A stretch of DNA of 64,000 nucleotides from Minisyncoccota bacterium. Its GTDB lineage: Bacteria > Patescibacteriota > Minisyncoccia > UBA6257 > JAGOQP01. The notes below the pieces were generated by a model. It was not told the origin of the DNA. It did no database searches and saw only the letters and a list, made by a program, of their open reading frames with translations. Below, one piece after another: positions 23,885 through 40,476 of the stretch (positions are counted from its first letter, which is position 1; every line of letters starts with the position of its first letter). The stretch spans positions 6,334-70,333 of the forward strand of contig JBAYIV010000001.1 in NCBI GenBank assembly GCA_041665445.1. The letters run 5' to 3'. Position numbers and translations under genes: made by a program.

Positions 23885-25216
23885 CTACTCAAATTGAGTT
23901 GCCTCGCGCTTAGGCACGAGCGATTTATCCGTCGGCAATTCAATCGAAAACGTGGTGCCACGATTAAGTTCTGACTCTACCACAATTGATCCGCCATGAC
24001 GCACGATAATGTTTTTGGTGATATACAGCCCCAATCCCGTACCATTGGGGGCGACTTTCATCGCGTTGTCCCCGCGGAAAAATTTTGTAAAAAGTTTTTC
24101 TGTTTGATCTTTCGGAATACCAATGCCCGTATCTTGAATCGTAATTTTGATGAACGGACGATCGTCTTCGTTGTGCACCCCAATGGTTACCTCGCCGTTC
24201 ACAACGTTATATTTAATCGCATTGTCCAGAAGATTGAAAAGCGCCATGCTCATTTTTTGCTGATCAATAAAAACTGGCGGCACCGGTTTTGCCGGACGCT
24301 GAAAATACAGCGTAACGCCATACTGGCCAGCCACGACTTGCGCATCGGCGAGCACGGTTGAAAGAAAATCAACAATGCTGACATCGGCAAATTGATAACC
24401 AAACCGCCCCTCTTCCATCTTCGACACATCAAGCAAGTCATTAACCGTCTTAAGCATTAATTTTGAAGCGACATATCCAGTATCGATGAGTTCTTTTTGG
24501 CTTTGGGTCACCGTTTCTTTCTCGAGCGCTTCAAGCGCCCAGGTAACCGCGGTTAATGGCGTACGCAATTGATGAGCCGCGATGGAAATAAACTCGCTTT
24601 TAGCGCGCAGGAGCTCGGCCTCACGCGTGCGGTTGGTAATCATCTTCACAAACCCCACCAGCTGTCCGGCGGCATCAAAAATACGATTGGTAACGACGCG
24701 CAGCTCAAGGTGCGGATTTTCAAAAACAATATCAACCACGCTTGGATAGACCCCCTCGTCTGACTGCTGAACAACACTAGGGGCCAATGAGGTGAAAACG
24801 ACCTGTGCCAATGCCTTGAATTGTGGGTTGGATACCATCGTGGTTGAAAGAACCTGGCCAACAATCTCTTCTTCTCGCACGCCAAAAATTTCAGCCGCTG
24901 CCTGGTTAAAAATAAGCACCGAAAAATTCGTATTGTATGCCAAAACACCCGTACCGATATAGGAAATAACGCTCTCCATCTGGCCTGATTGCGTTTTAAC
25001 ATCCAAGCTCGCCGCCGCCAAGCGCCATCCCACAACCCCCGTAATAGTAATTGCAACCGCCGCAATCCCCAAAACAATAATACCCCACGGCAACGACAAA
25101 AAAGAAAACCCAATAATCACCAGAATAAGAAAAAGTGGAAGCATGTAAAAAACCAGCCGCAATTCGGGCTGTTTAACCAATTCCTTGGTGGGATAGGGAA
25201 AGTGCGATTGTGGCAT
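23885..25216 (-). CDS. Sensor histidine kinase (2 TM + PAS + HisKA + HATPase_c), 443 aa; no cognate response regulator adjacent
   Basis: H-box …SIAAHQLRTPLTAV…. N/G boxes …IQDTGIGIPKDQTEKLFTKFFRGD…GTGLGLYITKNIIVRHGG…. Confidence 0.9.
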   Translation of the reverse strand: MPQSHFPYPTKELVKQPELRLVFYMLPLFLILVIIGFSFLSLPWGIIVLGIAAVAITITGVVGWRLAAASLDVKTQSGQMESVISYIGTGVLAYNTNFSVLIFNQAAAEIFGVREEEIVGQVLSTTMVSNPQFKALAQVVFTSLAPSVVQQSDEGVYPSVVDIVFENPHLELRVVTNRIFDAAGQLVGFVKMITNRTREAELLRAKSEFISIAAHQLRTPLTAVTWALEALEKETVTQSQKELIDTGYVASKLMLKTVNDLLDVSKMEEGRFGYQFADVSIVDFLSTVLADAQVVAGQYGVTLYFQRPAKPVPPVFIDQQKMSMALFNLLDNAIKYNVVNGEVTIGVHNEDDRPFIKITIQDTGIGIPKDQTEKLFTKFFRGDNAMKVAPNGTGLGLYITKNIIVRHGGSIVVESELNRGTTFSIELPTDKSLVPKREATQFE

Positions 25217-25225
25217 AGGCGTTGT

Positions 25226-26458
25226 TTACGACGTGGGAAGATTATAGAGATACACCGTGTGGTCAAGACGATTGATAAAGAAAAGCTGCGTTGCCGTCGC
25301 CCACAAAGAAACAACATCCAGCAAAACGTCCGACGCGGTTACCAGAGGCGTCAGCGAAGAAAATGCATCGCCCCCTATGCTATACAAAGAATCATGAAAA
25401 TAAACGTCGCCGCGCACATAGTCGTTCAAAATATTTAAATCATTTCCTTTGTCGTTTTCTCGCGGGACACCGCAGAAAAATCTTTTTCCGTCTAGAGCAA
25501 AAATACATTTATCGGCGATGGTTGCCATCGTCAGCGATCCCCGCTGTTTATTTTCACCATCAAGAAAACTTACCGCCATCGACGTTCCGTTTGGAGATGC
25601 CACAAATTGTGCGGCGACAGAGGGAGACGCGCCGCCAAAAACCATCGCGAGTCCATCGCCGTGGGTAACATAGTTAAGCGTTTTCTTGGTAAGATCAAAA
25701 TACCACACCTGACCATCAACTCCCGACGACGAACGAGACACGAAAAATAGCCGGCTTGCTGATGGCCAATAAATTTTTACATCAACCATCGCGAGCGAGA
25801 CAAGCGTCGTGCTGGTGCGTCGCGCTGTACCAAGGCTAATGGCTGACACGATCGCTTGACCATTGAGCTCCTTGAGAATCGCCAGTTTTGCCCCATCGGG
25901 CGAAAAAGCAACGTCCATCGTCTCCGCGGGCAATACATCCCATGCTTTTGTTTTTATATCAAAAAGGGCGTACGTTCGCGAATCAAAGAGAACGACGATT
26001 TTTGAGCCTGACTTATTTTGCCAGAGCCGAAGCGGTGTTCCAAAAGAGGATCCGGCGATCGTTTGTTCTCTGCCGATGTCCTGGATTTGCACCACATCAC
26101 CCTTGGCGTTCATATAATAAACAGCGTTGCGAATAATCCCCGACGTACTAGTGGTCGATGAAGCAACCCAGAAGACAGCGGCCGGATTAGTGGTGAGCTG
26201 AAAGAGATTATTTTTTTGTTGTTGCAGCGCCGCCGATGGCGCAGATTGATCTGGTTGACCCTGATTAACAGATAATGCCCCGGACCCCTGATTGTTGCTC
26301 CCCGATGACAGCGGAAAAGTACCTCCTCCCGACGATTGACCGGGAGTCGCCGCTTGTTTGGCGCCCTGAAGCCCAAAATACACGCCGACGCCAATAGCGG
26401 CAACAACCAAGAGAGCAATGATGATGATAATAATTCTATTTGTTGGCACGCTGTTCAT
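25226..26458 (-). CDS. Membrane-anchored protein with a β-propeller-like (TolB/PD40-like) periplasmic region, 410 aa
   Basis: N-terminal TM anchor (IIIIIIALLVVAAIGVGVYF). Repeated β-strand-rich segments with …FSPDGAKLA… type motifs. Confidence 0.45.
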   Translation of the reverse strand: MNSVPTNRIIIIIIALLVVAAIGVGVYFGLQGAKQAATPGQSSGGGTFPLSSGSNNQGSGALSVNQGQPDQSAPSAALQQQKNNLFQLTTNPAAVFWVASSTTSTSGIIRNAVYYMNAKGDVVQIQDIGREQTIAGSSFGTPLRLWQNKSGSKIVVLFDSRTYALFDIKTKAWDVLPAETMDVAFSPDGAKLAILKELNGQAIVSAISLGTARRTSTTLVSLAMVDVKIYWPSASRLFFVSRSSSGVDGQVWYFDLTKKTLNYVTHGDGLAMVFGGASPSVAAQFVASPNGTSMAVSFLDGENKQRGSLTMATIADKCIFALDGKRFFCGVPRENDKGNDLNILNDYVRGDVYFHDSLYSIGGDAFSSLTPLVTASDVLLDVVSLWATATQLFFINRLDHTVYLYNLPTS

Positions 26459-26516
26459 GGGTTCGTCTCTTATTAATCACCGACACAAAGATATGTTTAT
26501 AAAAATCTATATAATC

Positions 26517-27038
26517 CTACTTACAAAAACTCAATCCAAAATCAGTTCCAGCATATTGTTGGTCAACACTAATAGGGACACCAACAGTTACCTTTAACTT
26601 ACAAGCATCGCTCTGACTAATCCCTAATTTTTGAAGAAACGCCGCCTCTGCCTGTGTCCGCATCGCCATCACGGGTTTTTGCGAAATAGAAATAGCAAAT
26701 GAATTGTCGGGTTGATAATAGCTAATATCATATCCTGGATTGCGGGCGACAAGAGCCTCGGACCCGCCCGCGGCGACAATTACTGCGTTTTGGTAGAAAT
26801 TATTCACGGTAACCGCTCCCTGCGCGGTAGGAATACTAAAAACACTACTCGAAGACCCGGCCACTGGGGAAGGGGCCGCGGGAGACGTACTCGTTGGAGC
26901 CACAGGAAAGGTACTGCTGGCATTCCCGCCTTGCGGGGGAACGGTTGAGATTGATTGTATATACCAAAAACCCACCACCACGATGGCGACCACAAGAATA
27001 ATGATGCCGCTAATTAATACTATCTTCTTTGTATTCAT
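26517..27038 (-). CDS. Membrane-anchored hypothetical protein, 173 aa
   Basis: N-terminal TM anchor, Pro/Ser linker, then a small extracytoplasmic domain. Confidence 0.45.
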   Translation of the reverse strand: MNTKKIVLISGIIILVVAIVVVGFWYIQSISTVPPQGGNASSTFPVAPTSTSPAAPSPVAGSSSSVFSIPTAQGAVTVNNFYQNAVIVAAGGSEALVARNPGYDISYYQPDNSFAISISQKPVMAMRTQAEAAFLQKLGISQSDACKLKVTVGVPISVDQQYAGTDFGLSFCK

Positions 27039-27059
27039 ATATGGATGGACTAATTATTC

Positions 27060-28172
27060 TTATAAACCGCATTTTTGAATAGTCGCCGGTCCCCACAATC
27101 TCCAACTGCTCCCGTTTCCAGATAATTCGCACGCCTTTGCGATGTTATCGCTGGCACTCTGCGCGGCAGAGAGGCACTGCAAATACAACGCTCTATTGGT
27201 GACATTGCACGTCGGGTGACTGCCAGAAAAGGCATGATCAAAAGCGGTGGGACAATTCAGTCCACTAATGGTGTTTGCGCTGATGTTTATTTGAAATAGG
27301 CCAATGGAGACAGGGCTTCCATCGGCACATTTATCAGTGCCGCTTTGAGCCATTGGGTTCCCAGAACTTTCAATCATACAAACTCCACCAGCGATTTGAG
27401 CATTGCTTCCAAAACAAGAGCCCTGAAGCGCGGCCAGAGAGCACGGACCACTTGCCGGCGGCTGACATTGTCCTCCCGCTTGGCTCCCCACTGTTATTTG
27501 CAACGTGCAACTGTGTGTGGTGTCGTTCCCACCGCCCGTTGGGTCCGCCAGGATTGTCCCAAGAGACACGGTATATATTCCATTGTTTTGGAATGTGTGC
27601 GATGGTGAACCGTCTGAACTGCCAGCAGAACCATCTCCAAACGTCCAGGAAAAAGAGGCGGCCGCATCGACATCGGAAGAAAGAGCCACCGCAAGGGGAG
27701 ACGGACCAGACGATGGGGTCGCTGTGATAACACAGTCGCCGGTCCTGGCTCCAGAAGATGATCCCGAATTGCTCGGAAGCGTTGGGACGTTGGGCACTGT
27801 TGGATTTTTGAGATTGACCAACTCAGGATTGATAGTGTAGAGAATGATAAACCCGCCCAGCAACAGCACCACGCCGAAGATGGCGTTTTTGATAATATCA
27901 AGTGCGTCTCCTTTTGCCGCAGCATTGCCGCCGCTCGCCACATACTTCACACCTCCATACACGATCATAATCACCGCCGCACCGGCAACAATCCCGAGGG
28001 CATAATCATATAAACTTTTAACAAAATCGGCCGGGCTTTGTCCCTGTTGCGTAAACGAAGGCAGGCCCGCGCTGATAACATCAGCGTGCGCGGCGTGTCC
28101 AAAAAGACACAGAGCAATTCCGACAACCATTAAAAGAAAAACCTGTTTTTTTCGTAGATAACGCATGTTCAT
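27060..28172 (-). CDS. Membrane-anchored PKD-domain plus SLT-type lytic transglycosylase (VirB1-like function), 370 aa
   Basis: N-terminal TM region (…LGIVAGAAVIMIVYGGVKYVASGG…FGVVLLLGGFIILY…). PKD motif …FSWTFGDGSAGSSDGSPSHTFQNNGIYTVSL…. SLT motifs …MIESSGNP…GLFQI…. ATGA overlap with the upstream gene. Confidence 0.6.
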   Translation of the reverse strand: MNMRYLRKKQVFLLMVVGIALCLFGHAAHADVISAGLPSFTQQGQSPADFVKSLYDYALGIVAGAAVIMIVYGGVKYVASGGNAAAKGDALDIIKNAIFGVVLLLGGFIILYTINPELVNLKNPTVPNVPTLPSNSGSSSGARTGDCVITATPSSGPSPLAVALSSDVDAAASFSWTFGDGSAGSSDGSPSHTFQNNGIYTVSLGTILADPTGGGNDTTHSCTLQITVGSQAGGQCQPPASGPCSLAALQGSCFGSNAQIAGGVCMIESSGNPMAQSGTDKCADGSPVSIGLFQINISANTISGLNCPTAFDHAFSGSHPTCNVTNRALYLQCLSAAQSASDNIAKACELSGNGSSWRLWGPATIQKCGL

Positions 28173-28924
28173 CGAATAGAAAAGAAGTATGACGCCGATC
28201 CTTGCTCAATGCCGGACTGAGCAGGATTTGACACAACGGCCTGGACAGACTGGCTACCCGCCGCCGCATGCTGATCGAGATGAATAGACAGATGAGACGA
28301 ATCACTGCTCGATTGAGCCGTTGATCCATTGACCGTCCACTTGATGGAAAGCGCCTCTGGAGAAACGGTAAAAAAGAATGGAATAGCCGCAAGATTAATT
28401 ATCTGTCCGGGAGAGAACGAATCAACAAAAGGAGGCGCCTGGATAACAACCTGAGGAGAAACAACGGGAATAGTAAAATAACCCGATTGAATGGCGTTGT
28501 CGCCCATCGTTGGATCGGTGGTCTGCGTCGACACCTTGATATCAAGTTCGCCGCCGCCAAAAACTCTCTTATTCACAAAAAGAATGCTTCCCAAGCCAAT
28601 CCCATGGGCGACCAGATCACCATTAATAAACCACTTGACCGCTCGTCCATCGAGAGAAACAATTTTATTTCCTTGGAGCATCGTCACTGACAAAATAATC
28701 GAGCTTTGGTAGGTGGGCAGCACTTTCCCCGAATACCACGCTGGTGCGCCACCAACGGCGCGCCACGAGAAAAGAAACTGCGGCTGAGTACTCTGGTCTG
28801 CGGCACGAACAAATAAAGCGCCCCCCGACACAAATAAGAAGCTTAAAATAACCGCTCCGCATGCAACATATTTTTTCACATCAATTCTCATCTTTGGATT
28901 AGTATACCACATTCTTATACACAA
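28169..28924 (-). CDS. Secreted/membrane-anchored hypothetical protein, 251 aa
   Basis: N-terminal hydrophobic segment then a β-rich domain. 4-nt start/stop overlap with the downstream gene. Confidence 0.45.
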   Translation of the reverse strand: MCIRMWYTNPKMRIDVKKYVACGAVILSFLFVSGGALFVRAADQSTQPQFLFSWRAVGGAPAWYSGKVLPTYQSSIILSVTMLQGNKIVSLDGRAVKWFINGDLVAHGIGLGSILFVNKRVFGGGELDIKVSTQTTDPTMGDNAIQSGYFTIPVVSPQVVIQAPPFVDSFSPGQIINLAAIPFFFTVSPEALSIKWTVNGSTAQSSSDSSHLSIHLDQHAAAGSQSVQAVVSNPAQSGIEQGSASYFFSIR

Positions 28925-28929
28925 AAAAA

Positions 28930-29736
28930 CTATGCAGCCACATCAATATCATCATCGTTCCCATGCAAACGAGCGGGGGGAGCGCCTTGCTCACCAACGC
29001 CTTTTCCGCGCAAATCAACAACGTCACCGCCTTTGAGAGCCTGGCCGCCCAAAGAACTCTCTTGGGCGTCCTCTCTCTCGTCTTCTGAGTCTTTGTCAAA
29101 CAATTCCTTTCGTAATTCATCTCGCCGCCCCCGAAGCTTCCGCTCGGCATATTTAAGTCCCTTTTCTTTTGTTTTCTGCCCAAGCGTTTTTTCCGTTTCT
29201 TCTTGAGCCATCTCTTCTGCCCCTTTTTGGACCGTTTTTTCAACACCTTCCTCAACCGCCTTCTGGACGATTTTTTCCCCTCCCTGTTCTATCGCCTCTG
29301 TCGCGACCCGTCCGGCGGTTTCGGCCGCCACATCAACCGCTACTGCTCCTGCGGTTTCAGCACCAACAACACCAGCTTCCGCGGCAATGGTCGCGGGGGC
29401 CGCCGTTCCAACCGTAGCCGCTGTTACGGCGATAAGCGCAACAGTAACGGCGGCAAATTCAATAAGCTTGTTAGAGAGCACGATGCCCACAATCAAACCA
29501 ATAATCAGCACCGGCAAAGGAAGTATAAACGAGGCAATAATCACAACCCGTGGAATAAAGTGATGAAATTTGGGGAGCAAAATAAATCCGACAAAAAGCG
29601 CGGCCGTGTAATGGATGATGATGGTCCAGAAAAAGAAGTCACCCACAAAAGCGCAGACAAAAACAAGAAGAATCATTGGCTCAAGAAAATCTATCTCCTT
29701 GAGAGCGTCAAACTCTGCGATTTTTGAGATGTCCAT
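28930..29736 (-). CDS. Polytopic membrane protein with an Ala-rich and strongly acidic/basic C-terminal tail, 268 aa
   Basis: 3-4 TM helices, then AAETAG repeats and a K/E-rich tail. Confidence 0.45.
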   Translation of the reverse strand: MDISKIAEFDALKEIDFLEPMILLVFVCAFVGDFFFWTIIIHYTAALFVGFILLPKFHHFIPRVVIIASFILPLPVLIIGLIVGIVLSNKLIEFAAVTVALIAVTAATVGTAAPATIAAEAGVVGAETAGAVAVDVAAETAGRVATEAIEQGGEKIVQKAVEEGVEKTVQKGAEEMAQEETEKTLGQKTKEKGLKYAERKLRGRRDELRKELFDKDSEDEREDAQESSLGGQALKGGDVVDLRGKGVGEQGAPPARLHGNDDDIDVAA

Positions 29737-29782
29737 ACAAACAGTATATTACACCGCCACAGTCCCCCTCCCAAGAAACAGA

Positions 29783-31549
29783 TTACTGCCCCATAAGATC
29801 GCCCCCCTCTTCGCCGAGCAATTCTTGCGGCTTGGTGGTCACCACTCGATTTTCAAAGAATGACGCCACCACCTGAATGGCCACATGTTTCAATCCCGCA
29901 AAAAACAATCCTTGCCCCACGCCGGACTCAAGCAATAGATTTTTTTCCGCATCGGTAAGATTAAATGTTTTGCCGATGATATCGATACTTGCCGGCGCTT
30001 GTTTGAGTAAGAGCTGAAGCGACGAGTTGGTAATAATCGGCTTGCCATAGGGAGAACCAAGAAAGTCCTCCACCTCCTGCGTGATCGTGGTCAATCCCAG
30101 ATAATATTTGCGGCCGCGCTTTGCTAGCCCGAATAAAAACGCTGCGCCCTCCGGATATTTCATCAACACCCACGCTTCATCGATAACCAGCAAACGACGC
30201 TTGAGCTCCGATCGAACAATGTTCCAAATAAAGTTCAAAATCACATACATCGCGATCGGCCGCAGCTCTTCGTCCAAATCGCGCATTGAAAAAACAATCA
30301 AGCGGTTCCGCAAATCAATATTGGTGCGATGGTTGATAAAGCCGACGTAACTGCCTTCGGTAAACCGATAGAGCTTTTCGCCCATACTGCGCCCTCCCTC
30401 CATATTATGCAACACCGTCTGCAGATCCGACAAAAGTGGCGGATCGATTTTCAAAAAATTCGGATTGTCCGGCGTAATATCATACGAAGCGTACGTTTCC
30501 GTCAGTGCACGATCAAGCAGTGACTCCTCCTCAACGCTGATGTCGCCCAACATAATTTTCAAAAGACCCGTCAGGTTGAGAATGTGCGAACGGAAAACGT
30601 CGGCGGGATCTTCACCCTTGGGAACCTGCGGGATATCGAACGGATTAATATGCTGATCGGACGTTAAAGAAATTTTGAAATAAGTACCCCCAACCGAATC
30701 GCACAAATTTTTATATTCATCTTCCGGATCAATAACAATAACATCGGTCCCAATCATCAGCGACCGAAGAATCTCGAGTTTGCTTGCATATGATTTTCCG
30801 GATCCAGATTTGGCGAAAATAACCATGTTGCCGTTTTCCAGCGAAAAACGGTCGAAAATAACCAGCGAATTATTGTGCTGATTAATGCCGTAGAGAATAC
30901 CTGTTTCAGACGTGAGCTCGGTTGAGACGAAAGGGAAAAACGACGACACGGGGCCCGAATTCATCGGTGTCGTAATCATCAACTTGTCCTGCCCAAGCGG
31001 CAAGCACGAGGTGAGCCCCTCAATCTGCTGGAAAATAGCCGGCTTAATATAAATCAACTTACTTTCAAAAATATTTATTACCGTTTCCTCTAAGTCGTCC
31101 AGCTTCTTCAGCGAGTCGGCATAGATGGTGATGTAGACCGAGGTATCAAAAAGCCGTTCGCGAGCCTGTTGCAGGCTGTCGCGCAACGACTCAATGTCGG
31201 AAAATGCCGTCTCCAGCATCGGGTCGCGCACAAATCCCTTTTCTTGCCGATCGGAAAGTTCGGCCTCTATCTGCGCCGCCTTTTTGCGCAAATTCCGCAA
31301 CGCGAGCGCCGTATCAACGGGATGAACGAAGATTGACGCATCAAAATATTGCGGCAAGTTGATGATCGCCGAAAACCATCCCGTCGAAAGATACCGTGGA
31401 TACGAAAACACAAACAATGTGCGCGCAAACCGCTCGCCTATTTTGACATAGCTTTGGTTAACCTCCATGGCCGCGGGCGCGATGAGATTTTCCATGTCTC
31501 CCTCTTCTTGACCTGCGTATGGTTTTAAAACACGTATTTGATCTGCCAT
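29783..31549 (-). CDS. virB4: VirB4/TrbE/CagE-family T4SS ATPase, C-terminal ATPase portion (588 aa)
   Basis: Walker A …IFAKSGSGKSYASK…. Walker B …VIDEAWVLM…. Length and motif order match the VirB4 ATPase domain. Confidence 0.85.
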   Translation of the reverse strand: MADQIRVLKPYAGQEEGDMENLIAPAAMEVNQSYVKIGERFARTLFVFSYPRYLSTGWFSAIINLPQYFDASIFVHPVDTALALRNLRKKAAQIEAELSDRQEKGFVRDPMLETAFSDIESLRDSLQQARERLFDTSVYITIYADSLKKLDDLEETVINIFESKLIYIKPAIFQQIEGLTSCLPLGQDKLMITTPMNSGPVSSFFPFVSTELTSETGILYGINQHNNSLVIFDRFSLENGNMVIFAKSGSGKSYASKLEILRSLMIGTDVIVIDPEDEYKNLCDSVGGTYFKISLTSDQHINPFDIPQVPKGEDPADVFRSHILNLTGLLKIMLGDISVEEESLLDRALTETYASYDITPDNPNFLKIDPPLLSDLQTVLHNMEGGRSMGEKLYRFTEGSYVGFINHRTNIDLRNRLIVFSMRDLDEELRPIAMYVILNFIWNIVRSELKRRLLVIDEAWVLMKYPEGAAFLFGLAKRGRKYYLGLTTITQEVEDFLGSPYGKPIITNSSLQLLLKQAPASIDIIGKTFNLTDAEKNLLLESGVGQGLFFAGLKHVAIQVVASFFENRVVTTKPQELLGEEGGDLMGQ

Positions 31550-31561: not shown

Positions 31562-32260
31562 TTATGCCGCACCGCGCGGGGATGGGTGCGCTGTTTCTTT
31601 GGGAAGCTTTTTTTCTATTGTTTCCGGATTGTAGAGATTGTAGTAGAGCTCGGTCAACTCGCCGTCGTTGAGCACCACCGCACGCAAACCAATCTGCGAC
31701 AAGCCCGCGATAACTTGATCAACGCGTTGCTGCAATTGCACCGTCTGCTCCTCAAACGATTCTTGCTCCTCTGTTTTGTTTCCCTTCTTTTTCATAAAAG
31801 GAATGAAATCAGTAATGCTGCGACGCACTTCTTTCAACCCGCCGCTATCATACGGGATAATGGTAAAAAAAGTTTTGGTCATAATCTCATTATTTTTGAC
31901 CAACCCGCCAATATATTCAATGTATTCAGCTGTTTGCGTTTTGAGCAGCTGGCTTGTTTCCGCAACACGGATTTCCTCCATGCGCGCCAGATACGCATCA
32001 ATATTAAGTTTGCGCGAATGGACGATGGTCTGCAAAGAGAAGTCTAGTCCATTGAGAAAGTTTTGGTACGACGACGTGATGATGTCCTGTTCTTCTTGGG
32101 ATTTTAAGTCAAAATTGATCCCCGCCACCATTACCACGGCACGCAAACCACCGCTTTTAAGCGAAACCACCCCGTTTTTAATCTGTTTAACGTCAACAAA
32201 CCGCTGGGTCGAATCAGGCGCAACGGTTATTTTTTCTTTTTCAGTAATGCCTTGGGCCAT
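31562..32260 (-). CDS. VirB4 N-terminal domain encoded as a separate ORF (same frame as 29783..31549, separated by TAA + 4 codons)
   Basis: …VDVKQIKNGVVSLKSGGLRAVVMVAGINFDLKSQEEQDIITSSYQNFLNGLDFSLQTIVHSR… resembles the VirB4 N-terminal (CagE_TrbE_VirB) region. Start trimmed to MAQGITEK to avoid overlap with the VirB3-like gene. Confidence 0.5.
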   Translation of the reverse strand: MAQGITEKEKITVAPDSTQRFVDVKQIKNGVVSLKSGGLRAVVMVAGINFDLKSQEEQDIITSSYQNFLNGLDFSLQTIVHSRKLNIDAYLARMEEIRVAETSQLLKTQTAEYIEYIGGLVKNNEIMTKTFFTIIPYDSGGLKEVRRSITDFIPFMKKKGNKTEEQESFEEQTVQLQQRVDQVIAGLSQIGLRAVVLNDGELTELYYNLYNPETIEKKLPKETAHPSPRGAA

Positions 32261-32306
32261 ACAATACAATAAGTATACACGAAAAGAAGCCGCAAACAAA
32301 AAAGTC

Positions 32307-32831
32307 CTAGCGATAATCAATGCGCCGAGCAACTTCTTTCTCGCCGGTTGTCCGGCGGAAAACCTCAAATTGTTCCCGCACATCTTCAAGTTTCGGTTGC
32401 GGTTCTTTTTCCCGATGAGGGATGGGATTGCGGGTCGTGGAAAGCTCTTGCCACAATTTTGCCACGTTTGAATTTTTCTGCTGCGTTTCCCCCAGCGCCT
32501 GTCGTCGCGCGGCGATGACGACCGTGGGAATGGTGATCATTTCTTGTATCACGGGGCGTTTCCACAAAAAAACCTTGGGGCCCCAGAAAAATTCAACGGC
32601 GTAGATAGTGAGCATATAGAGCGGCCGCTCGTTTATCTTGATAAACGCAAATGATGCACCAGCACCCATGAGAATAATCGCCACCGGTATCCACGCCCAC
32701 AAAGCAAGGGTAAAGTAGAGGAAAAAACACGCCAGCGCTGACGTGGCGACAAAGCCGAATTGCTTGATGGTCAACGGACCAACAATCTTGCTTTCAGTAT
32801 CTATAAATTGAGGAACTTCAAACTGAGCCAT
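32307..32831 (-). CDS. VirB3/PrgI-like small membrane protein, 174 aa
   Basis: Two TM helices near the N-terminus (…FVATSALACFFLYFTLALWAWIPVAIILMGAGASFAF…). Sits immediately upstream of VirB4, as in T4SS loci. Confidence 0.45.
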   Translation of the reverse strand: MAQFEVPQFIDTESKIVGPLTIKQFGFVATSALACFFLYFTLALWAWIPVAIILMGAGASFAFIKINERPLYMLTIYAVEFFWGPKVFLWKRPVIQEMITIPTVVIAARRQALGETQQKNSNVAKLWQELSTTRNPIPHREKEPQPKLEDVREQFEVFRRTTGEKEVARRIDYR

Positions 32832-32882
32832 AAATCTTTCTTAGTATATCCCACCGCCGCTCTTTGTACAAAGCACAAAGAA

Positions 32883-34625
32883 TTATGATTTTCTAAAAAA
32901 AGAGAAGAACCCTCGCTTTTTTTGAGGAGCGGAAACTACCGGTGTTTGGCCATAGCCAACCGCCGGATATTGATCGTGTTTATCAACAGAGATGCCGACG
33001 GTTTGCGCGGCCCCCTGCGATGGTGGGGGAACTTGTACGTCAGCGACCGCTGGTGCCGCGCTTTGATGCGACGGCTGACTAGAAAGATTTTTTGAAAACC
33101 CACTATAGGAAAGGTTTTGATACTGTGATCCCGACCGCGCCTGCGCAACAGACGGATCGTCTCGCTTATGAATGATAACCGGACCCATGTCCACAACTTC
33201 ATTGGGGTCGATTGGTTTTTTATTCACCTCCTGTTGGCGAGGCAAACCCATACCACTCACCATAGGCGCGTCGGCATCTTTTGGTGCCGGAGTCGACGAG
33301 GCTAATGGCGCCATCTTCATGGGGCGAGATGGCATTGCCTCGTGCGCGGGCTGACCCGCCTGATATGGGTTACCCGAGGAGGAACCACCCTCTTCGCGCG
33401 TTTGTCTGACCTCAACGACAACATCGGGTTGCCGTGGCGCCTGTGCCGGTGGAGCCCATTGTATTGGACGAACTTGCGGCGGTGCCTGTTCTGGTTCTGC
33501 GACGCGTCCCGTTGGTTGGTTTAAAACCGGTTGAGTATTTATATTGCCGCCAAACGCAGAGGTTTGAGTGGGGAGGGGTTGTGGAGCGTTGTTCTGCGGA
33601 GCAATCGATACATTGACCGATGCTGGACTTGTGGGAGGCGTTGTTTCAATGGTTTTTTGAGAGATTTTTGTTTCCTGAGGATGAATAACAGGTGCTGACG
33701 GTAATGGAAGAATTTCTTTTTTCTCATTAGGATGTATTGGCTTTCCTGCTATTGGATGCGGCACGGGCATCACCTCCGGAAGACGCGAGTCTTCAATGAC
33801 CGGCAAAAGATCATGTTCTGGTTTTTTTATTTTTGGATCAAGTGCGCCGCTCGGCTTAACCGATGCCGGAGAAGATGGGTGGCGAGCGTTGAGCAGTGCG
33901 GAGTCGTCCGATGGTGCCGCGGCTGGCTGGCCCATGATGCGGCGAGAAGCGGCAATGTTCTCATTTTCTATCCCCCATAAGTCTTTAGTTGAAAGCGAAA
34001 AAATATCTTTCTCTGAATCCGGCGAAGGCGGAACGGGACGGCGAGATGCTCCCTCAACGTCTTGTTTTTTCTGGATAATGGACGGCTCAGATGATGGACT
34101 GGTTTCTTTTTGCTGAAGCGGACGGGACGCACGCGGCGGGACAAACGCACCAGTACCTCCCGATTCTTTCATCGCAAGAATTCTGGGACCCGCTTCTTCT
34201 TTTTTAAGGTTCACTGTTCCCTCGGGCTCGGGCGTTTTAAGATTTATTTGAGAAACAACGTCTGGTTTTTGAACGCTCGCCGCATCAATCACGCCCACTT
34301 TGAATTTCAAATAATTATCCTCGATGTCTTTGCGAATCGGCTCAAAAAGATTAGCGTCAATTTCTTGATATACCGCCAAGGCCGTTTTCTCATTAACCGC
34401 AAGCACTTCTTGAAGCTCGCGCATCGCGTCGCGATAGGGAAGAAAACCGAGAAAAACAAGATCGACGATTTTTTCTAGATCGTATCTATTATCGGGAGTT
34501 ATTTGATTTTTTTCAGCTATGCGATCAAGGTGATGGTCGTTGACAATAGAAAAAATAGCATCTCTTAAAACTTGCGAGATGTTTTCCCATCTTTCATTTA
34601 TCTGTTCACGAGAAATTCTAATCAT
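32883..34625 (-). CDS. Pro/Gln/Ser-rich, largely disordered protein with a structured roughly 115-aa N-terminal domain, 580 aa
   Basis: Continuous ORF in operon orientation. Composition is dominated by P, Q, S and A. No family recognised. Confidence 0.45.
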   Translation of the reverse strand: MIRISREQINERWENISQVLRDAIFSIVNDHHLDRIAEKNQITPDNRYDLEKIVDLVFLGFLPYRDAMRELQEVLAVNEKTALAVYQEIDANLFEPIRKDIEDNYLKFKVGVIDAASVQKPDVVSQINLKTPEPEGTVNLKKEEAGPRILAMKESGGTGAFVPPRASRPLQQKETSPSSEPSIIQKKQDVEGASRRPVPPSPDSEKDIFSLSTKDLWGIENENIAASRRIMGQPAAAPSDDSALLNARHPSSPASVKPSGALDPKIKKPEHDLLPVIEDSRLPEVMPVPHPIAGKPIHPNEKKEILPLPSAPVIHPQETKISQKTIETTPPTSPASVNVSIAPQNNAPQPLPTQTSAFGGNINTQPVLNQPTGRVAEPEQAPPQVRPIQWAPPAQAPRQPDVVVEVRQTREEGGSSSGNPYQAGQPAHEAMPSRPMKMAPLASSTPAPKDADAPMVSGMGLPRQQEVNKKPIDPNEVVDMGPVIIHKRDDPSVAQARSGSQYQNLSYSGFSKNLSSQPSHQSAAPAVADVQVPPPSQGAAQTVGISVDKHDQYPAVGYGQTPVVSAPQKKRGFFSFFRKS

Positions 34626-34650: not shown

Positions 34651-36750
34651 CTATACCAACTTCATTGCGTCACCAAATGCTTTGACGCGGGCATTTTTTG
34701 ACTTCCTCATCTCCGGAGCTAGTTTGGTAATGTCGCCACGTATGGCAGCAAATTTCACTGTCTCCGCCAACTCATCGGCAATTTGCTTATCAAGATTCAC
34801 CTTTCTCTCAACCAAAACCTCTACCTTCTTTTTGGACGCGACGACCGGTCTTCTGTTTTTGATGTCATCTTGATACTCTGTTTGTGCATTATTAATTTCT
34901 GCTTGCAATTTTGTTGGCAGATCGCGCTTATTGTCGGCGACCTGAGTGCTGTATTCATCCAGAACCACACCAGCCCCGTCCATAAAGAATTTCTCGCGAT
35001 CATTGGAATTGGTTATTTGAGCCGCCGTAGCCCTTGTTTTTGCCGGATCATCATAGGCAAGGTTATGTGTCTGATTACGATAGTCAATACTGGCTCCAGT
35101 GCCAAATTTTGCATTTAAGGCGCTGACGCCATTCTTGTCGGCAAAATATTTTCCTTGAGCGATGGCTTTCCCATCGTTTTTCATAAAACGAGCGTAATCA
35201 TCGGACGACATCACGGAAACCGCTTTGCCTGTTTCGGTCATGAACCGAGCCCTGTCGCCGGCCGCATATGCTTGAATCGCGCCTTCATTTAATCCGCGCG
35301 CAGCCAAAACAGCTTGCGCCTCTTTTCCTTTAGGGTTGTCTTTTTTCAATCCTTCATGAAGCGCAATTATTTCCCCCATACTATATTTCCCGCCGTCTCC
35401 ATCGGCCAAAACTTGAGCCATCGCCAATCGCCCCTGCGGACCGCCAATCATTCTTGCTAGTTCGGCTTTTTGTTTTCCGGTACCAGCGAGCTTTGCCTCA
35501 ACGTACGCTTTAGATTTTTCTTCCATAGCTTGAGTCCCCCGCGCATGCATTTGTGCCGCAGAGTCAAGGAACAGCGCTTTCCCCAGAGTTGTGCTCCCCG
35601 CCTTATTGAGTCCACCCTGGAGCTTTGCCCGCATGCTCTTGTCTCCCCCTGCGTTATAGGCACGGTTAGCGCCCCGCGTTCCATATTCCTTTGCTTTGCC
35701 CTTGGTATAATCGGCGACTTTCTTTGCGGAGCCGGTGGCCATCTGACCCCCATAGACACCAATTTTTGACGCCACCATCATGCCACCCATCAGCATAGCA
35801 ACCGCCATCAGCGACCCAACGATATTACTAAACGGCATCCCCGAAACCACATCTCCTCCTTTGGTGGTTAAGGCAGACATAAAACCGCTAAATCCCGGAT
35901 CCTGCGCCCGCCCGCCCACGCCGTTAATTGAGGCATAGAGCTGCATTGATAAATTAAGAAAAAACAAAACAGCCGGAGGGAAAATCATCCATTTTATAAA
36001 TTCATCCCACCAAGATTTCCAGTGTTTTTGCGTTGTGGGGAAAATCCACAGTAACCACACAATAGGCGAAAGCATCATTAAAAACGCCACAAAAAAGTAT
36101 CGCACCAGTAAAATAATGGCAAAACTCAACAATGTCATAAAAATAATAACCTGGATGAAAATACCAACGAGCGCTGTTATGGTGTCACTGATGTCGCTTG
36201 CGGCACTTGAAAAGAAAAAGGTTTTTATTTTATCCATCGCGGTAGAACTCGCATTCGTATACACAAGCGGGTTAAGCGCGCTCACCGTTTTTTCCGCCGC
36301 AATCAACGCCATGTCCCCGGCCGATCCGGTTCCCGATCCGGTCCCGCCCGCGATTGCCGTAAGATAATAATCGGAAAAATTTTGAGACACCACGAGAAAC
36401 GGCGAGATAATAGCCAAGCTAAAATTTACCAAGAGCGCCGCCACGATGAGTTTCCATAAAATCTGAGATGCGGAATAATTTTTCCAACGAAAAATAGTTG
36501 CAAAAGCAATAATAATAATCCCCAGGACAAATCCCAAATTTGCCAGATCACGAAACATTGACCACCCCTGCAAAATAAAACTATTCATTCCGTTCCAATC
36601 AAGATGCGTCAACGTTGAATTAAGCCACAACGCAAGAGCCACCAATAAACTGGCAAGTTTAATTAAAACCGTCACCAAACCCATGAGAAGCGTGGCGAGG
36701 GCCTTAACCACCGTGGCAACACTTGGCAAAAAACCTGTAAAAAGTGGCAT
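34651..36750 (-). CDS. VirB6/TrbL-like polytopic membrane protein with a hydrophilic C-terminal extension, 699 aa
   Basis: 6-8 TM helices in the N-terminal 330 aa (…IIIAFATIFRW…, …ALVGIFIQVIIFMTLLSFAIILLVRYFFVAFLMMLSPIVWLLWIFP…), then a soluble K/A/G-rich domain. Located in a T4SS locus. Confidence 0.55.
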   Translation of the reverse strand: MPLFTGFLPSVATVVKALATLLMGLVTVLIKLASLLVALALWLNSTLTHLDWNGMNSFILQGWSMFRDLANLGFVLGIIIIAFATIFRWKNYSASQILWKLIVAALLVNFSLAIISPFLVVSQNFSDYYLTAIAGGTGSGTGSAGDMALIAAEKTVSALNPLVYTNASSTAMDKIKTFFFSSAASDISDTITALVGIFIQVIIFMTLLSFAIILLVRYFFVAFLMMLSPIVWLLWIFPTTQKHWKSWWDEFIKWMIFPPAVLFFLNLSMQLYASINGVGGRAQDPGFSGFMSALTTKGGDVVSGMPFSNIVGSLMAVAMLMGGMMVASKIGVYGGQMATGSAKKVADYTKGKAKEYGTRGANRAYNAGGDKSMRAKLQGGLNKAGSTTLGKALFLDSAAQMHARGTQAMEEKSKAYVEAKLAGTGKQKAELARMIGGPQGRLAMAQVLADGDGGKYSMGEIIALHEGLKKDNPKGKEAQAVLAARGLNEGAIQAYAAGDRARFMTETGKAVSVMSSDDYARFMKNDGKAIAQGKYFADKNGVSALNAKFGTGASIDYRNQTHNLAYDDPAKTRATAAQITNSNDREKFFMDGAGVVLDEYSTQVADNKRDLPTKLQAEINNAQTEYQDDIKNRRPVVASKKKVEVLVERKVNLDKQIADELAETVKFAAIRGDITKLAPEMRKSKNARVKAFGDAMKLV

Positions 36751-36811
36751 GCCTATATATGTTAGATAATGTTAGCTTGTCTCCAGAACAACCAGCTTGC
36801 CTCGGAATTAA

Positions 36812-38308
36812 TTACAATGACGAACATTGTTGTTGGAGCACTTGAGCGCTCTGTAAAGCCACATTTGCCGCATTGAGCATTGAATTGGTCCCCACCGACG
36901 CGTCAGCAAGAACCTGGGTCCATAACTCGGTGTAGGTAGTTGAGAACGTCTGCCACGCAGCCACCACATCGCTTGATGATGCCGTACTTGCTTGATCAAC
37001 GTTTGTTTGTGCATCAGCCAGCGCTTGAGTAATGGTCATTACCTGTGTCTGAATCCCCGAGAGAATGTCGCCGGGGACAAGGCTGGGACACGACGACGCG
37101 GTTTGCGTCAGAATAGTGAGAACTTGACCATAGACACTCACCACGGGACTATAGTACGACCCGAAGTCGGCGTAGTTTTGCAAAATCGTCTCGGTGCTGG
37201 TGTCGGTAGTACCACCACCACCGCCCGGAGGATTAGTTGGGGGCATTTGGCTTGTGAGCAATTGTCCGTAGTTAGTTGTCTGCGAATAGTTAGAGGTCGC
37301 CCCCGCAAGTCCTTGCTGTATATAGTTCATGAGTATGCTGATCGCTCCGTTGATAACCGCGGCGACAATACTCTGAATGTTGCTCGTAAAGTCATATTTC
37401 CCAACCGTAAACGCCTCACCGATTGACTTTGCCACTGTGTCGCCTGGCGTTTGTGTGTCCCACTGCGTGCACGAAGAATTGGAATCGTTCGGATCGGCGT
37501 GTTTAACACATGTCTTTTGATTCAAAAATCCTCCTGATGATTGTGCCTCGCTCTGGCGCGACTGCGACTCTTGAGCCATTCGACTCAAATACTGATCCTT
37601 TACCTGGAGAGAGACTCCAAAATAATTATTATCCGGCGATGCAGCGGCTTCAAATGCGAGCCAGTTGCCATTCTGTAAATAGTTGGCGGTATTTTGTAAA
37701 TTTTGCTGAAATCCTTGGATCGTGCATCGCGTAATAGCGCTCTGCGCATATTGATTGCTGTACTGTTTCTGCAATCCGATCAGTTGAACTTGGAGCTGCG
37801 GTGCAAAGGGGCCGCAAAGATTTACCCCCCAATTACTCATCAGATCATTGTTAACAGAATCGAACGCCACGTCAGCAGCCTTATTCAAAAACGCCTTCCA
37901 GTCAGTCACAAACAATGGCTCGTCCTGAAACCCGCCCTGCGCCCACTGGACAATCATATCCGTCATCATGTCAGTAATGCGCTTGACGATAACATCGCGA
38001 AGCAACGCCTTATACGGCCGAGAAACATTCTCGTGATACGACGAAAGTGTTAATTGCGCGATAGTGCTTGCTTGCTGCATTCCCAACACACCCGGTGCCG
38101 CTATCGGGACTCTGCCGGTCGCCGCGATTTCTTGCGCCAAGAGACCCGAGGCCGTTCCCGTAAAAGTGCTCAAGATACCAGTATCGCCCGACTCTGTTCC
38201 GCTTTGAGCATAGACGGGAAGCGAAAAACTAGGGGTGGCAAAAACAATCGAACACAATACGATTACTAAAGAAACTTTTCTGTACGATAAAATGCGGGAA
38301 GTGCTCAT
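36812..38308 (-). CDS. Secreted Q/N/T/S-rich hypothetical protein (about 498 aa after trimming to the signal-peptide Met)
   Basis: The ORF-track start is GTG at 38398; the internal MSTSRILSYRKVSLVIVLCSIVFATPSFSLPVYAQ is a signal peptide preceded by GGGAG. Composition suggests a pilus-tip or VirB5-like secreted component, but no motif was found. Confidence 0.45.
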   Translation of the reverse strand: MSTSRILSYRKVSLVIVLCSIVFATPSFSLPVYAQSGTESGDTGILSTFTGTASGLLAQEIAATGRVPIAAPGVLGMQQASTIAQLTLSSYHENVSRPYKALLRDVIVKRITDMMTDMIVQWAQGGFQDEPLFVTDWKAFLNKAADVAFDSVNNDLMSNWGVNLCGPFAPQLQVQLIGLQKQYSNQYAQSAITRCTIQGFQQNLQNTANYLQNGNWLAFEAAASPDNNYFGVSLQVKDQYLSRMAQESQSRQSEAQSSGGFLNQKTCVKHADPNDSNSSCTQWDTQTPGDTVAKSIGEAFTVGKYDFTSNIQSIVAAVINGAISILMNYIQQGLAGATSNYSQTTNYGQLLTSQMPPTNPPGGGGGTTDTSTETILQNYADFGSYYSPVVSVYGQVLTILTQTASSCPSLVPGDILSGIQTQVMTITQALADAQTNVDQASTASSSDVVAAWQTFSTTYTELWTQVLADASVGTNSMLNAANVALQSAQVLQQQCSSL

Positions 38309-38398
38309 ACGGCTCCCATTCTTTGTTAGTGTAGCATATAAATACATAGAGAGAGAAGTTTTTGTGTGCATAATCTCCGCCCAACAATCCGCACTCAC

Positions 38399-39655
38399 TT
38401 AGGGAGAATACGGGATAAGAGACGTCCCGAAGAACGAGATCGTCCCCGCTCCTTCTGAATAGGTTACCGTCCCCTTGTTACACACGCCCGGACTGGGGAA
38501 CTGATCTCCTAAAATCGAGTTGCTAGGATACACCGCATTATACAAAAAGGGGTTTGCGGCATACACGGTCCAATACAAAAAGAATGCGCCACTTGACGGT
38601 GGGGGCGTCTCCCCAACGACAATCAGCTCTCCCGTCGTGCAAACATCGGCGATGGATTCAATCCGGCCACCGAACGGGAGCAATGCCCCGATTTGCGCGC
38701 GCGCCATCAAAACAAAAGAGGAAAGCCGACTCCAAAAACCTCCCCACACCGACGGGGCCGACCGACCGCTCGTTGATTGACGAGAGAAAATAATCCGATA
38801 GGTGGGATAATATTCCGCATATACCCGCTGATAGTTTGCCAGTGTGTCCGCAATATTTTGCGCAGTTTGTGATAGAGACGCGGCAGCGATGACTGCGATT
38901 GCGTTGTAGGAAAACCACGCAAGTAAATTTCGATGCTGTCCCTCCATCGATGCCGAAACGGAGACGAGGCGCAGTTGCCCGTATACAGTCTGATAGAAAT
39001 CTCCCCAGAGGCGCAATTTTTTTACCAGTACGGCCTGCGCGATGCCGTCATTTTGTTCAATCGCGCGCTTCAGTCCTTGTAAAAGCGCGGGAATTGTTTC
39101 AATCGTTCCGGATGCGGTTTTCAATAACTCAACGTCGCCAAGCGATCCAAGTGACGCGGTTTGAGATAAAGATAAAAATCGCGCGCGATACGCCTCAACG
39201 GAATCAATGCCCGAGGGCGACACCAGCACGTCGGTGGCGGGGACAAGGGGAAGCGACGAAAGTTTTTCCAAAACAGTCGACGTTGTGGTGGTTGATTGGC
39301 TTGGTTGGACGGGTGCGGCAGACCCTCCGCCCGTTAATGACAGAATGTATAATTTTGTTTTGGGTCCGAAATAACCCAGCGCCGGAAATACGCGATGCGC
39401 CGATTGAAAGCGCGCAAGCGCGCGCGCGGTGAGGGGACCAAAATATCCCGAGACAATTCCCTCGGGATATATCTTACCCGCCACGGTCGTTTGATTCGAT
39501 AAAAATTCCTGCAGAAGGGCGACACGATCTCCGCGAGACCCGATAGATAGATCGGCGCCACCGACAAGAATCGATTTTTGTTGCGTGGTTATGGTGGCAC
39601 CTGCCCAGGCAGGAACCATAAAAAGAATAGCCACGACTAAAAAAACTTTTTTCAT
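38399..39655 (-). CDS. Secreted peptidoglycan-binding-domain protein, about 418 aa
   Basis: Signal peptide MKKVFLVVAILFMVPAWAGA. PG_binding_1-like …LSIGSRGDRVALLQEFLSNQ…GIVSGYFGPLTARALARFQSAHRV…GYFGPKT…. Start overlaps the upstream stop. Confidence 0.55.
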   Translation of the reverse strand: MKKVFLVVAILFMVPAWAGATITTQQKSILVGGADLSIGSRGDRVALLQEFLSNQTTVAGKIYPEGIVSGYFGPLTARALARFQSAHRVFPALGYFGPKTKLYILSLTGGGSAAPVQPSQSTTTTSTVLEKLSSLPLVPATDVLVSPSGIDSVEAYRARFLSLSQTASLGSLGDVELLKTASGTIETIPALLQGLKRAIEQNDGIAQAVLVKKLRLWGDFYQTVYGQLRLVSVSASMEGQHRNLLAWFSYNAIAVIAAASLSQTAQNIADTLANYQRVYAEYYPTYRIIFSRQSTSGRSAPSVWGGFWSRLSSFVLMARAQIGALLPFGGRIESIADVCTTGELIVVGETPPPSSGAFFLYWTVYAANPFLYNAVYPSNSILGDQFPSPGVCNKGTVTYSEGAGTISFFGTSLIPYSP

Positions 39656-40476
39656 TAATTTTTTATGGGCACGAGATACGTTTGAATGCTTTGCCACTGA
39701 GTAATAAGATCGGGGAGAGCCTCAAACGCCATGTAGGCTCGAACAGGATCACTTTGATACGTTGCCACCGCAGAAAAAATCTTTTCAACGTTCGAGAAAA
39801 ATTGAAGATTTTTTGTATGAAAACTCACATAAACTCGTGGCACAGTCATGTTTTTCAAAGTAGCCTCAAGCGCCTGATCGCGCTTAAGAAAGTCGTTGAT
39901 AAAAGTCCCGCTCCCGTCGCTCACCAATGCGTTGATGCCGTTTTGTACTTTTGACCAATCAAAAAGGTCGGTAATAATGTGCGACCCAGATACCGCCTTA
40001 CCGTAGGCATTGCCATACGCCAAAATAACAGCCGACGACGAATCGTTGGTGATAATGAAGGCTGCCGGATCAATGGCTGTATTAAGATTGAGTGAATTCG
40101 AATTAAGACCCCCGGCCGCGCCCTGCAAGTTTATTTGTTCCACCAAGGATTGAGCGCTCGAAGCGGTCAATTGCCCACTAAAAGGAAGAGACACAAACTG
40201 ACTCGTGAGGGCTCGAGTAATACTATCCGTTAAATTTGACGACGTCGACGACGAAGACGATGCAGGCGACGCGCTTTGGAGCGACCCAACGCTTTCAGTG
40301 TTTAATCCTTTGTCCAGGGCGCCCATAGGAAAGGCATCTGTTGTCGACGCGGTTTCTCCGGATTTATCGGGAGAGGTGATAATCTGAGAAAGCGATGACG
40401 AGAAAAGCCAATAAAGAAGAAACGCGACCGCGACAATAAAAAAGCCGAAAAAAAGATTTTTATGCTGATCAGTCAT
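39655..40476 (-). CDS. N-terminally membrane-anchored protein, first gene of the T4SS-like operon (VirB8-like topology, unverified), 273 aa
   Basis: Single TM (LFFGFFIVAVAFLLYWLF), then a Ser-rich linker and a globular domain. Confidence 0.45.
   Translation of the reverse strand: MTDQHKNLFFGFFIVAVAFLLYWLFSSSLSQIITSPDKSGETASTTDAFPMGALDKGLNTESVGSLQSASPASSSSSTSSNLTDSITRALTSQFVSLPFSGQLTASSAQSLVEQINLQGAAGGLNSNSLNLNTAIDPAAFIITNDSSSAVILAYGNAYGKAVSGSHIITDLFDWSKVQNGINALVSDGSGTFINDFLKRDQALEATLKNMTVPRVYVSFHTKNLQFFSNVEKIFSAVATYQSDPVRAYMAFEALPDLITQWQSIQTYLVPIKN

Follow-up and report, generated by a model that had tools for sequence, protein, structure and literature searches.

A putative Patescibacteria-type type IV secretion locus beside the chromosomal origin of a Minisyncoccota bacterium

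Described systems and their likeness to the locus

A large share of the uncultured diversity of bacteria belongs to Patescibacteria. The type IV secretion systems (T4SS) of a Patescibacteria clade have been catalogued across 3,035 genomes (Quinonero-Coronel et al. 2025, Microb Genom, PMC12102498), with a free-standing TrsD next to VirB4 in 1,664 Patescibacteria loci, a VirB1-type hydrolase associated with virB4 specifically in Paceibacteria, and an origin-proximal position, with KsgA and dnaA/dnaN nearby, in Paceibacteria. Epibiotic growth of Southlakia epibionticum ML1 requires the T4SS and pilins encoded by SEML1_0006-0019 (Wang et al. 2023, Cell, PMC10633639), and in the same species, the only genetically tractable relative, ComEC-dependent competence is dispensable (PMC10633639, PMC12857230). 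This study compared with these systems a string of 14 minus-strand open reading frames (ORFs) that are spaced -4 to 61 nt apart and run from position 40476 to 23885 in a 64-kb stretch of DNA from a Minisyncoccota bacterium (assembly GCA_041665445.1, contig JBAYIV010000001.1, positions 6,334 to 70,333; hereafter the window). The original prediction for this DNA had described a co-oriented gene string encoding a T4SS-type envelope machine, and both descriptions held: VirB4, TrsD, PrgI and T4SS_pilin were typed by hidden Markov models (HMMs), and VirB6 at the family level. At a probability of roughly 85%, the locus represents a chromosomal, origin-proximal T4SS of Paceibacteria (Parcubacteria), within a Patescibacteria-specific clade descended from the monoderm conjugation machinery of mating-pair formation type FATA (MPF-FATA).

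The locus shares with the Patescibacteria-clade T4SS a VirB4, a separate TrsD, a PrgI/VirB3 protein, a probable VirB6, a PF18895 pilin near virB4, a putative virB4-associated hydrolase, the ksgA and dnaA/dnaN context, and the absence of a nearby relaxase or type IV coupling protein (T4CP). Statements on the presence or absence of a coupling protein, relaxase, VirB11 or response regulator refer to the window, in which ORFs of at least 80 aa were scanned for conjugation and response-regulator genes. The T4SS of S. epibionticum ML1 is likewise monoderm-type and chromosomal, has pilins, lacks a recognisable coupling protein or relaxase, and has peptidase and lysozyme homologues adjoining virB4. 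It differs in belonging to the Saccharimonadia and in encoding six separate short pilins in place of the one long pilin-hydrolase fusion found here; moreover, its essentiality was shown experimentally, whereas the window locus is known from sequence only.

The MPF-FATA systems of Firmicutes (Prg/Pcf of pCF10, the CD1110 cluster of CTn2 and Trs of pGO1) have in common with the locus a CD1110-type VirB4, PrgI, a free TrsD of the pGO1 type, a polytopic VirB6 analogue and a wall hydrolase (both putative in the locus), and the lack of a VirB7/9/10 outer-membrane core. They possess a T4CP and relaxase, reside on mobile elements, carry adhesins and have no VirB2-type pilins, whereas the window locus has a pilin and is without T4CP, relaxase, mobile context and adhesins. 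ComB of H. pylori and Ced of Sulfolobales also combine a VirB4-family ATPase with a non-conjugative function and no relaxase, but ComB needs VirB7-10 and Ced needs CedA/CedB, for which only a P-loop-level CedB match was seen here.

Judged by these comparisons, the identifiable core matches the Patescibacteria T4SS described in 2023-2025, and nothing in it differs in kind. The earlier remark that such minimal T4SS are poorly characterised was half true, the system having been catalogued across those 3,035 Patescibacteria genomes in 2025. What the locus appears to add is descriptive and comprises passenger exchange in a pilin-hydrolase fusion, three families around the core that are conserved but unannotated, and probable internal promoters. 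The portions of PMC12102498 that were available hold no mention of a one-polypeptide pilin-hydrolase, of conservation of the genes here named g273, g528 and the beta-propeller gene (g410), or of putative internal promoters, and a pilin-hydrolase fusion with passenger exchange was not found described in the literature searched.

The secretion core and the pilin-hydrolase fusion

The VirB4 ATPase scored 380 bits (2e-113) against the NCBIfam model conju_CD1110, above the curated cutoff of 325 bits, and it matched the Pfam families P-loop_TraG (1.8e-27) and AAA_10 (2.6e-12). Both nucleotide-binding motifs on which its identification had been proposed were read by eye (Walker A, KSGSGKS; Walker B, LLVIDEAW). 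The best VirB4 neighbours, 46-80% identical, lie in 80 species-level loci, all from metagenome-assembled genomes of Patescibacteria (two of them complete) and mostly Paceibacteria (Wolfe-, Harrison- and Yanofskybacteria), which agrees with the small-genome lineage that had been suggested. These 80 loci were searched gene by gene with tblastn, and gene positions were counted with family HMMs built from orthologues in the 63 loci having enough flank. The survey, which the original prediction had proposed, recovered the recurrent order g273–g528–VirB6–PrgI–TrsD–VirB4–(g251–pilin)–beta-propeller g410 across the 80 genomes, with single genes kept in 49-61 of the 63 loci. Two patterns dominated, g273–g528–VirB6–VirB4–g410 and a variant of it that also contains g251–pilin, and 39 loci showed one or the other.

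Directly upstream of the ATPase gene lies a TrsD-like ORF that matches NCBIfam VirB4_plasma (5e-8) and TrsD (2.4e-6) under the family cutoffs; on these scores it counts as a homologue, not as a curated TrsD member. The ORF aligns to the N-terminal 110-150 residues of VirB4 models, and coverage of the CD1110 model is complementary, positions 9-119 falling to the TrsD-like ORF and 185-733 to the VirB4 ORF, as expected for the split VirB4 that had been claimed. By this alignment, the two ORFs are two halves of one VirB4, which is borne out by natural fusions in three related loci (ORFs of ~800-840 aa at L010:9230-11758, L065:1019-3412 and L069:9323-11722, where an assembly artefact is possible). 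In the 79 related loci surveyed for the split, the genes are separate in 76 and fused in 3. TrsD and VirB4 share a reading frame in 22/79, which looks random. The window ORFs happen to share a frame and are 12 nt apart, with a TAA and 9 nt between them. A pseudogene or recoding at this in-frame TAA was considered and rejected, since the genes are separate in 76/79 loci and the frame appears random.

The PrgI-like protein scored 27.8 bits (3.8e-6) against Pfam PrgI, marginally above the gathering score of 27, and has two transmembrane (TM) helices at about residues 25-66, consistent with the VirB3-like protein of two TM segments originally proposed; its gene is directly upstream of TrsD in 70/80 loci. 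The VirB6-like protein has about 5-6 TM helices in residues 1-335, followed by a ~360-aa hydrophilic, K/A/E-rich C-terminal domain. Its own match to Pfam TrbL (E 0.007, 16.6 bits, model positions 2-200 of 215) stays below the gathering score of 25.9, and 6 of 31 orthologues match TrbL at E<=0.01 (best 7e-6). A profile of the TM region found in the Protein Data Bank (PDB) the R388 TrwI/VirB6 as its sole match, at a non-significant E of 1.4. The gene is upstream of VirB4 in 61/63 loci and holds a fixed position upstream of PrgI. The VirB6 assignment is thus weaker and is supported at the family level only: the predicted polytopic architecture and the family matches stood, and significance of the protein's own score did not.

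The protein originally described as a PKD-SLT lytic transglycosylase has a signal peptide at its start, followed by a VirB2-like pilin domain, which had been missed. This domain (T4SS_pilin, PF18895, residues ~46-119) contains two hydrophobic helices and scored 33.2 bits (5.6e-8) against a gathering score of 26.6; NCBIfam Mbov_0395 pilin-like also matched weakly. A PKD_4 domain follows at residues 150-220 with a significant match (3e-10), and residues 253-360 retain the ES...GLFQ motif as ESSGNP...GLFQI. The SLT part of the description fared less well, since SLT_3 (4.4e-5, 24.3 bits) and SLT (5.6e-3, 16.7 bits) both fall under their gathering scores of 27 and 21.3. In the matter of HMM significance, VirB4 therefore passed, and VirB6 and SLT remained below their own thresholds.

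All 30 positional orthologues of this protein carry T4SS_pilin and 5 also match TrbC/VirB2, whereas PKD plus SLT occurs only in the window protein and in none of the others. In 18/38 related pilin ORFs, the C-terminus is instead a Hedgehog-N/LAS-peptidase-like domain with the signature TGGxH...SxHYxGxAxD...HxH. ORFs of this type were listed for L001-L011, L013, L017, L021-L025, L041 and L077 (e.g., L001:13048-14013), and the domain is present in two tandem copies in L003, L004, L005 and L008. A profile of this passenger matched Hedgehog N-domains in the PDB (Sonic hedgehog, ~1e-6) and, weakly, M15C and L-Ala-D-Glu endopeptidases; by that profile, the passenger of the 18/38 relatives is a LAS zinc-peptidase fold. 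The pilins of other relatives end in Cys-rich or coiled-coil tails. Across the aligned relatives, the VirB2-like module is conserved and the passenger is exchangeable, with a predicted wall hydrolase in the window protein and in 18/38 relatives.

Accessory genes, transcription and chromosomal setting

The 580-aa Pro-rich protein, the ~500-aa Q/N/T-rich secreted protein and the beta-propeller protein that had been listed among the unassigned products are all present, together with the PKD domain (Table 1). The Q/N/T-rich protein, g528, has a confident C-terminal helical bundle and stands at a fixed position in 53/63 loci. An exhaustive search of representatives at 50% identity yielded 4,618 homologues at E<=1e-3 and 3,397 clusters at E<=1e-10, where a word-indexed search had yielded just 8-10 proteins. 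The g528 family has no Pfam model, no annotation and no convincing structural match, and the PDB profile search was unproductive. Some members (P0049-P0196) are 700-950 aa long with extra domains, and one has BNR/sialidase-like repeats. The beta-propeller protein, g410, was modelled by AlphaFold2 with a predicted local distance difference test score (pLDDT) of 81.9 and a predicted template modelling score (pTM) of 0.78; Foldseek returned propellers at E ~1e-10, the family profile matches PD40 proteins, and the gene is downstream of VirB4 in 59/63 loci. In 49/63 loci, g273 precedes VirB4 in the same orientation. The gene g251 is always paired with the pilin gene, the pair being downstream of VirB4 in about 24-27/63 loci. 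Neither g273 (Pfam, NCBIfam, PDB) nor g251 (family models) had a match, and profile searches of PDB sequences with g273, g251, g580 and the full-length VirB6 family returned only coiled-coil noise or nothing.

The g580 protein combines a conserved ~130-aa helical N-terminal domain with a long Pro-rich low-complexity region; it is presumably cytoplasmic because it has no predicted TM segment. It found no match in the family libraries, and in 18 close relatives its gene is flanked by those of VirB6 and PrgI. Lineage-specific neighbours, according to tblastn, are g432 and g268 (2/80 loci each), g173 (no match among the 80 loci) and the histidine kinase. Pfam and NCBIfam scans gave no relative of known function for g268 or g173. 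The g432 protein is the sole PG_binding_1 protein of the locus (6e-5, 23.6 bits; gathering score 23), and of the two such proteins claimed for the operon, the other is at 8827-11727, outside the locus. The kinase had been presented as an orphan at the end of the operon. Its PAS-HisKA-HATPase architecture is clear and no response regulator (Response_reg) was found in the ORFs scanned. The kinase adjoins the cluster in only the 15 closest relatives and counts here as a neighbour, not as a demonstrated part of the machine.

Table 1. Genes of the cluster, flanking genes, origin features and TATACT boxes, in window coordinates.
Feature	Position	Strand	Description and basis
g273	39655..40476	-	Bitopic: N-terminal TM helix, Ser-rich linker, ~170-aa outer domain; first of the conserved block
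g432	38399..39655	-	Signal peptide, PG_binding_1, Cys-containing C-terminal domain
g528	36812..38347	-	Secreted, ~500 aa, Q/N/T-rich, 6 conserved Cys
VirB6-like	34651..36750	-	Extended polytopic membrane protein
g580	32883..34625	-	580 aa, Pro-rich, predicted TM-free
PrgI/VirB3-like	32307..32831	-	Two TM helices; Pfam PrgI
TrsD-like	31562..32260	-	VirB4 N-terminal domain, free-standing; NCBIfam
VirB4 ATPase	29783..31549	-	NCBIfam conju_CD1110, Walker A/B
g268	28930..29736	-	Small polytopic membrane protein, charged C-terminal tail
g251	28169..28891	-	Signal peptide or anchor, beta-rich ~200-aa outer domain
Pilin fusion	27060..28172	-	VirB2-like pilin, PKD, SLT-like; Pfam T4SS_pilin, PKD_4, SLT_3
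g173	26517..27038	-	Small bitopic protein
g410	25226..26458	-	N-terminal TM anchor, disordered linker, PD40/TolB-like beta-propeller
Histidine kinase	23885..25216	-	PAS-HisKA-HATPase membrane kinase, WalK/PhoR-like; Pfam domains
ksgA	40494..41279	-	rRNA adenine dimethylase; upstream cluster edge; Pfam RrnaAD 7.5e-39
holA-like	23072..23878	-	DNA polymerase III delta; downstream flank; NCBIfam holA 4.3e-9, below cutoff
dnaA	50826..52289	+	
dnaN	52433..53554	+	
DnaA box	50727		Perfect match
DnaA boxes	52306..52387		Three near-perfect, in dnaA-dnaN spacer
Origin region	50520..52432		GC skew switches sign at dnaA/dnaN
TATACT box, PrgI	32843..32848	-	11 nt from ATG
TATACT box, TrsD	32272..32277	-	
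TATACT box, g268	29743..29748	-	6 nt from start codon
TATACT box, g251	28901..28906	-	

Refined start codons are ATG 32260 for the TrsD-like ORF (not TTG 32389), ATG 28891 for g251 and, probably, ATG 39655 for g432. The start of g528 is probably 38347, supported by an identical 511-aa database protein (P0001), and NCBI WC246_00155 (Candidatus Paceibacterota bacterium) is an exact match to a protein encoded in the locus. Two start/stop overlaps were seen, TAATG at 39655 (g273/g432) and ATGA at 28169-28172 (g251/pilin), not the three of ATGA type that had been counted.

The case made for a single operon was not supported. The minus strand holds 39 of the 43 genes on the locus side of the replication origin (oriC), and the median gap is tighter outside the locus than inside it (13 vs 38 nt); co-orientation and packing do not define an operon here because both are genome-wide. 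In addition, TATACT boxes resembling -10 elements lie within the string, 6-11 nt 5' of the start codons of PrgI, TrsD, g268 and g251, and the same motif precedes ruvA by 12 nt and ftsH by 11 nt. The window contains 21 TATACT against 7.8 expected, and 0/100 shuffles reached 21. Among relatives, TATA[AC]T is present 12-16 nt upstream of TrsD in 22/76 and upstream of g251 in about 12/27, and it seldom precedes VirB4, the pilin gene or g410. Shine-Dalgarno motifs are nearly absent, and this scarcity together with the TATACT spacing suggests short-leader or leaderless expression in the organism. Intrinsic terminators in the locus occur at chance (26 found vs 26.4 expected) and were of no help in defining transcription units. 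The locus is probably expressed as several short-leader units, for example PrgI, TrsD–VirB4, g268 and g251–pilin onward, and not as one transcript. Across the window, TATACT typically stands 6-12 nt before start codons, and further minus-strand positions include 22743 and 62942.

The cluster lies 12-28 kb from oriC/dnaA-dnaN. Its upstream flank comprises dksA-like, comM, uvrD and ksgA, and its downstream flank holA-like, ruvA and a Mur ligase; at higher coordinates follow rnpA–yidC–jag on the minus strand and then dnaA and dnaN. The ksgA gene is upstream in 56/80 loci, the holA-like gene is syntenic in 11 loci, and the GC content of the locus resembles that of its flanks. The original prediction had noted that no VirD4, relaxase or VirB11 lies in the locus; a VirD4/TcpA coupling protein, relaxase or VirB11 likewise had no match in the other window ORFs scanned. 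The one FtsK-family protein of the window, at 15650-17881, was considered as a TcpA-type coupling protein and rejected, as it carries the FtsK alpha and gamma domains of a chromosomal translocase.

Elsewhere in the window, the minus strand encodes two large secreted proteins, one of 655 aa with a Big_7 Ig domain (6598-8565) and one of 966 aa with PG_binding_1 (8827-11727); the latter is probably the second PG-binding protein of the original prediction. A tandem pair of paralogous SLOG/LDcluster4 genes (LOG-like "lysine decarboxylase" family) is at 17827-19114 (minus strand), and a 235-aa protein with a PaaX_M/Cas2-like domain is encoded at 13715-14422 (plus strand), beside a DeoR-HTH protein. 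AT-rich stretches at 52001-54000 (dnaN) and 56001-58000 (ruvC/UPF0102 region) have a GC content of ~0.40 vs ~0.50 elsewhere. A tRNA-Ile with anticodon TAT (UAU) was predicted at 60860-60936 on the minus strand, beside tRNA-Val(TAC). Such a tRNA would be unusual, as AUA is read in most bacteria by a lysidine-modified CAU tRNA.

Proposed function and competing explanations

The machine most likely serves a host-dependent lifestyle rather than conjugation, because it has no coupling protein or relaxase in cis and because housekeeping genes frame the cluster at a fixed place in 80 species. The non-conjugative role envisaged for this chromosomal locus by the original prediction agrees in this respect with PMC12102498 and PMC10633639. 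In the proposed mechanism, VirB4/TrsD would dock via PrgI onto VirB6, the likely membrane channel, and would power the assembly of a short pilin-based conduit across the cell wall. The Sec-exported VirB2-like pilin, with its PKD and lytic-transglycosylase-like passenger, would join the roles of VirB2 and VirB1, and the fused hydrolase could locally open the peptidoglycan of the cell's own wall, of the host's wall, or of both. The accessory surface proteins (g273, the g528 family, g251 and g410) may form wall-spanning or adhesive parts, and the machine as a whole would move protein, DNA or other macromolecules between epibiont and host.

Several points weigh against this interpretation. Clade membership rests on the nearest neighbours of VirB4 and on its best-scoring family model, VirB6 and SLT are each below curated thresholds, and a simple sequence search of the SLT-like domain against the PDB and plasmids gave no homologue. 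No VirB8-like component was identified in the profile searches of the locus families. The pilin may be a mere membrane anchor for the hydrolase that does not polymerise. The promoter calls are consensus matches made on sequence alone, and the function is carried over from a species of Saccharimonadia, a different class. Finally, the window covers only 64 kb, and a distant T4CP is possible, an arrangement common in such genomes according to PMC12102498.

A dedicated DNA-import (competence-type) T4SS, a role that the original prediction had raised, would resemble ComB of H. pylori or archaeal Ced and feed a nucleotide-auxotrophic cell. It would also be in keeping with the failure to find a relaxase or T4CP in the window, and it gains from the recombination genes on either side (ComM and UvrD upstream of the cluster, RuvA downstream of it). 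PMC12102498 favours the view that DNA or other macromolecules are taken up from the host, and the VirB4 piece matches CedB and CedD weakly and partially. The CedB match, however, is confined to the P-loop region and reaches 43 bits where the cutoff is 700, homologues of ComB7-10/VirB8-10 and CedA were not detected in the Pfam and NCBIfam scans, and the flanking repair genes are ordinary origin-proximal housekeeping in a region where nearly all genes share one strand. As the T4SS of S. epibionticum is essential and its ComEC-dependent DNA uptake is not (PMC10633639, PMC12857230), we consider a machine dedicated to DNA import unlikely, though it deserves a hearing.

Two further explanations were weighed. 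That the genes are unrelated envelope genes made adjacent by genome compactness, with VirB4 as the sole true T4SS gene, fits the genome-wide co-orientation and tight spacing, the lack of family assignments for most accessory proteins, and the behaviour of g432, g268, g173 and the kinase, which show poor conservation or adjoin the cluster in close relatives alone. Yet PrgI, TrsD, VirB4, the pilin and, at the family level, VirB6 were independently typed as T4SS components, and g273, g528 and g410 keep their positions in 49-59/63 loci, over a span of lineages in which VirB4 identity is only 46-60%; chance adjacency is therefore very improbable. It is hardly credible that the cluster belongs to an integrative conjugative element, whether as a remnant or as an active module. 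Such an origin would fit the nearest VirB4 family, CD1110, which is that of a conjugative transposon from Clostridioides, the MPF-FATA conjugation type of the components, and a tyrosine recombinase gene in the window (4858-5769). That recombinase is Xer-like and 18 kb off, no relaxase, T4CP or adjacent integrase accompanies the cluster, and the GC content is like that of the flanks. Dozens of species-level genomes moreover keep this gene order together with the housekeeping genes on either side of it, and relaxases are present in just 103/3,035 genomes (PMC12102498).

For the host-associated Patescibacteria T4SS preferred here, the locus is a clean example from Paceibacteria in which the conserved core is defined. 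To our knowledge, no T4SS other than that of Patescibacteria is known to be essential for the growth of its bearer. The g528 family (fixed next to VirB6), g410 and the pilin-hydrolase fusion are candidates for the wall-spanning or host-contact parts of this machine. A bolder and rather doubtful reading takes the pilin as a modular "pilin-anchored wall cutter" with a lineage-exchanged passenger, and g528 and g273 as the missing Patescibacteria-specific equivalents of VirB5 and VirB8. Should that be true and the pilin form polymers, enzymes fitted to the wall of a particular host would stud the conduit, and passenger swapping would then track host range. If the modular pilin-hydrolase and the g528 and g273 families are indeed the missing host-contact parts, the locus would be worth more than a further example of its kind.

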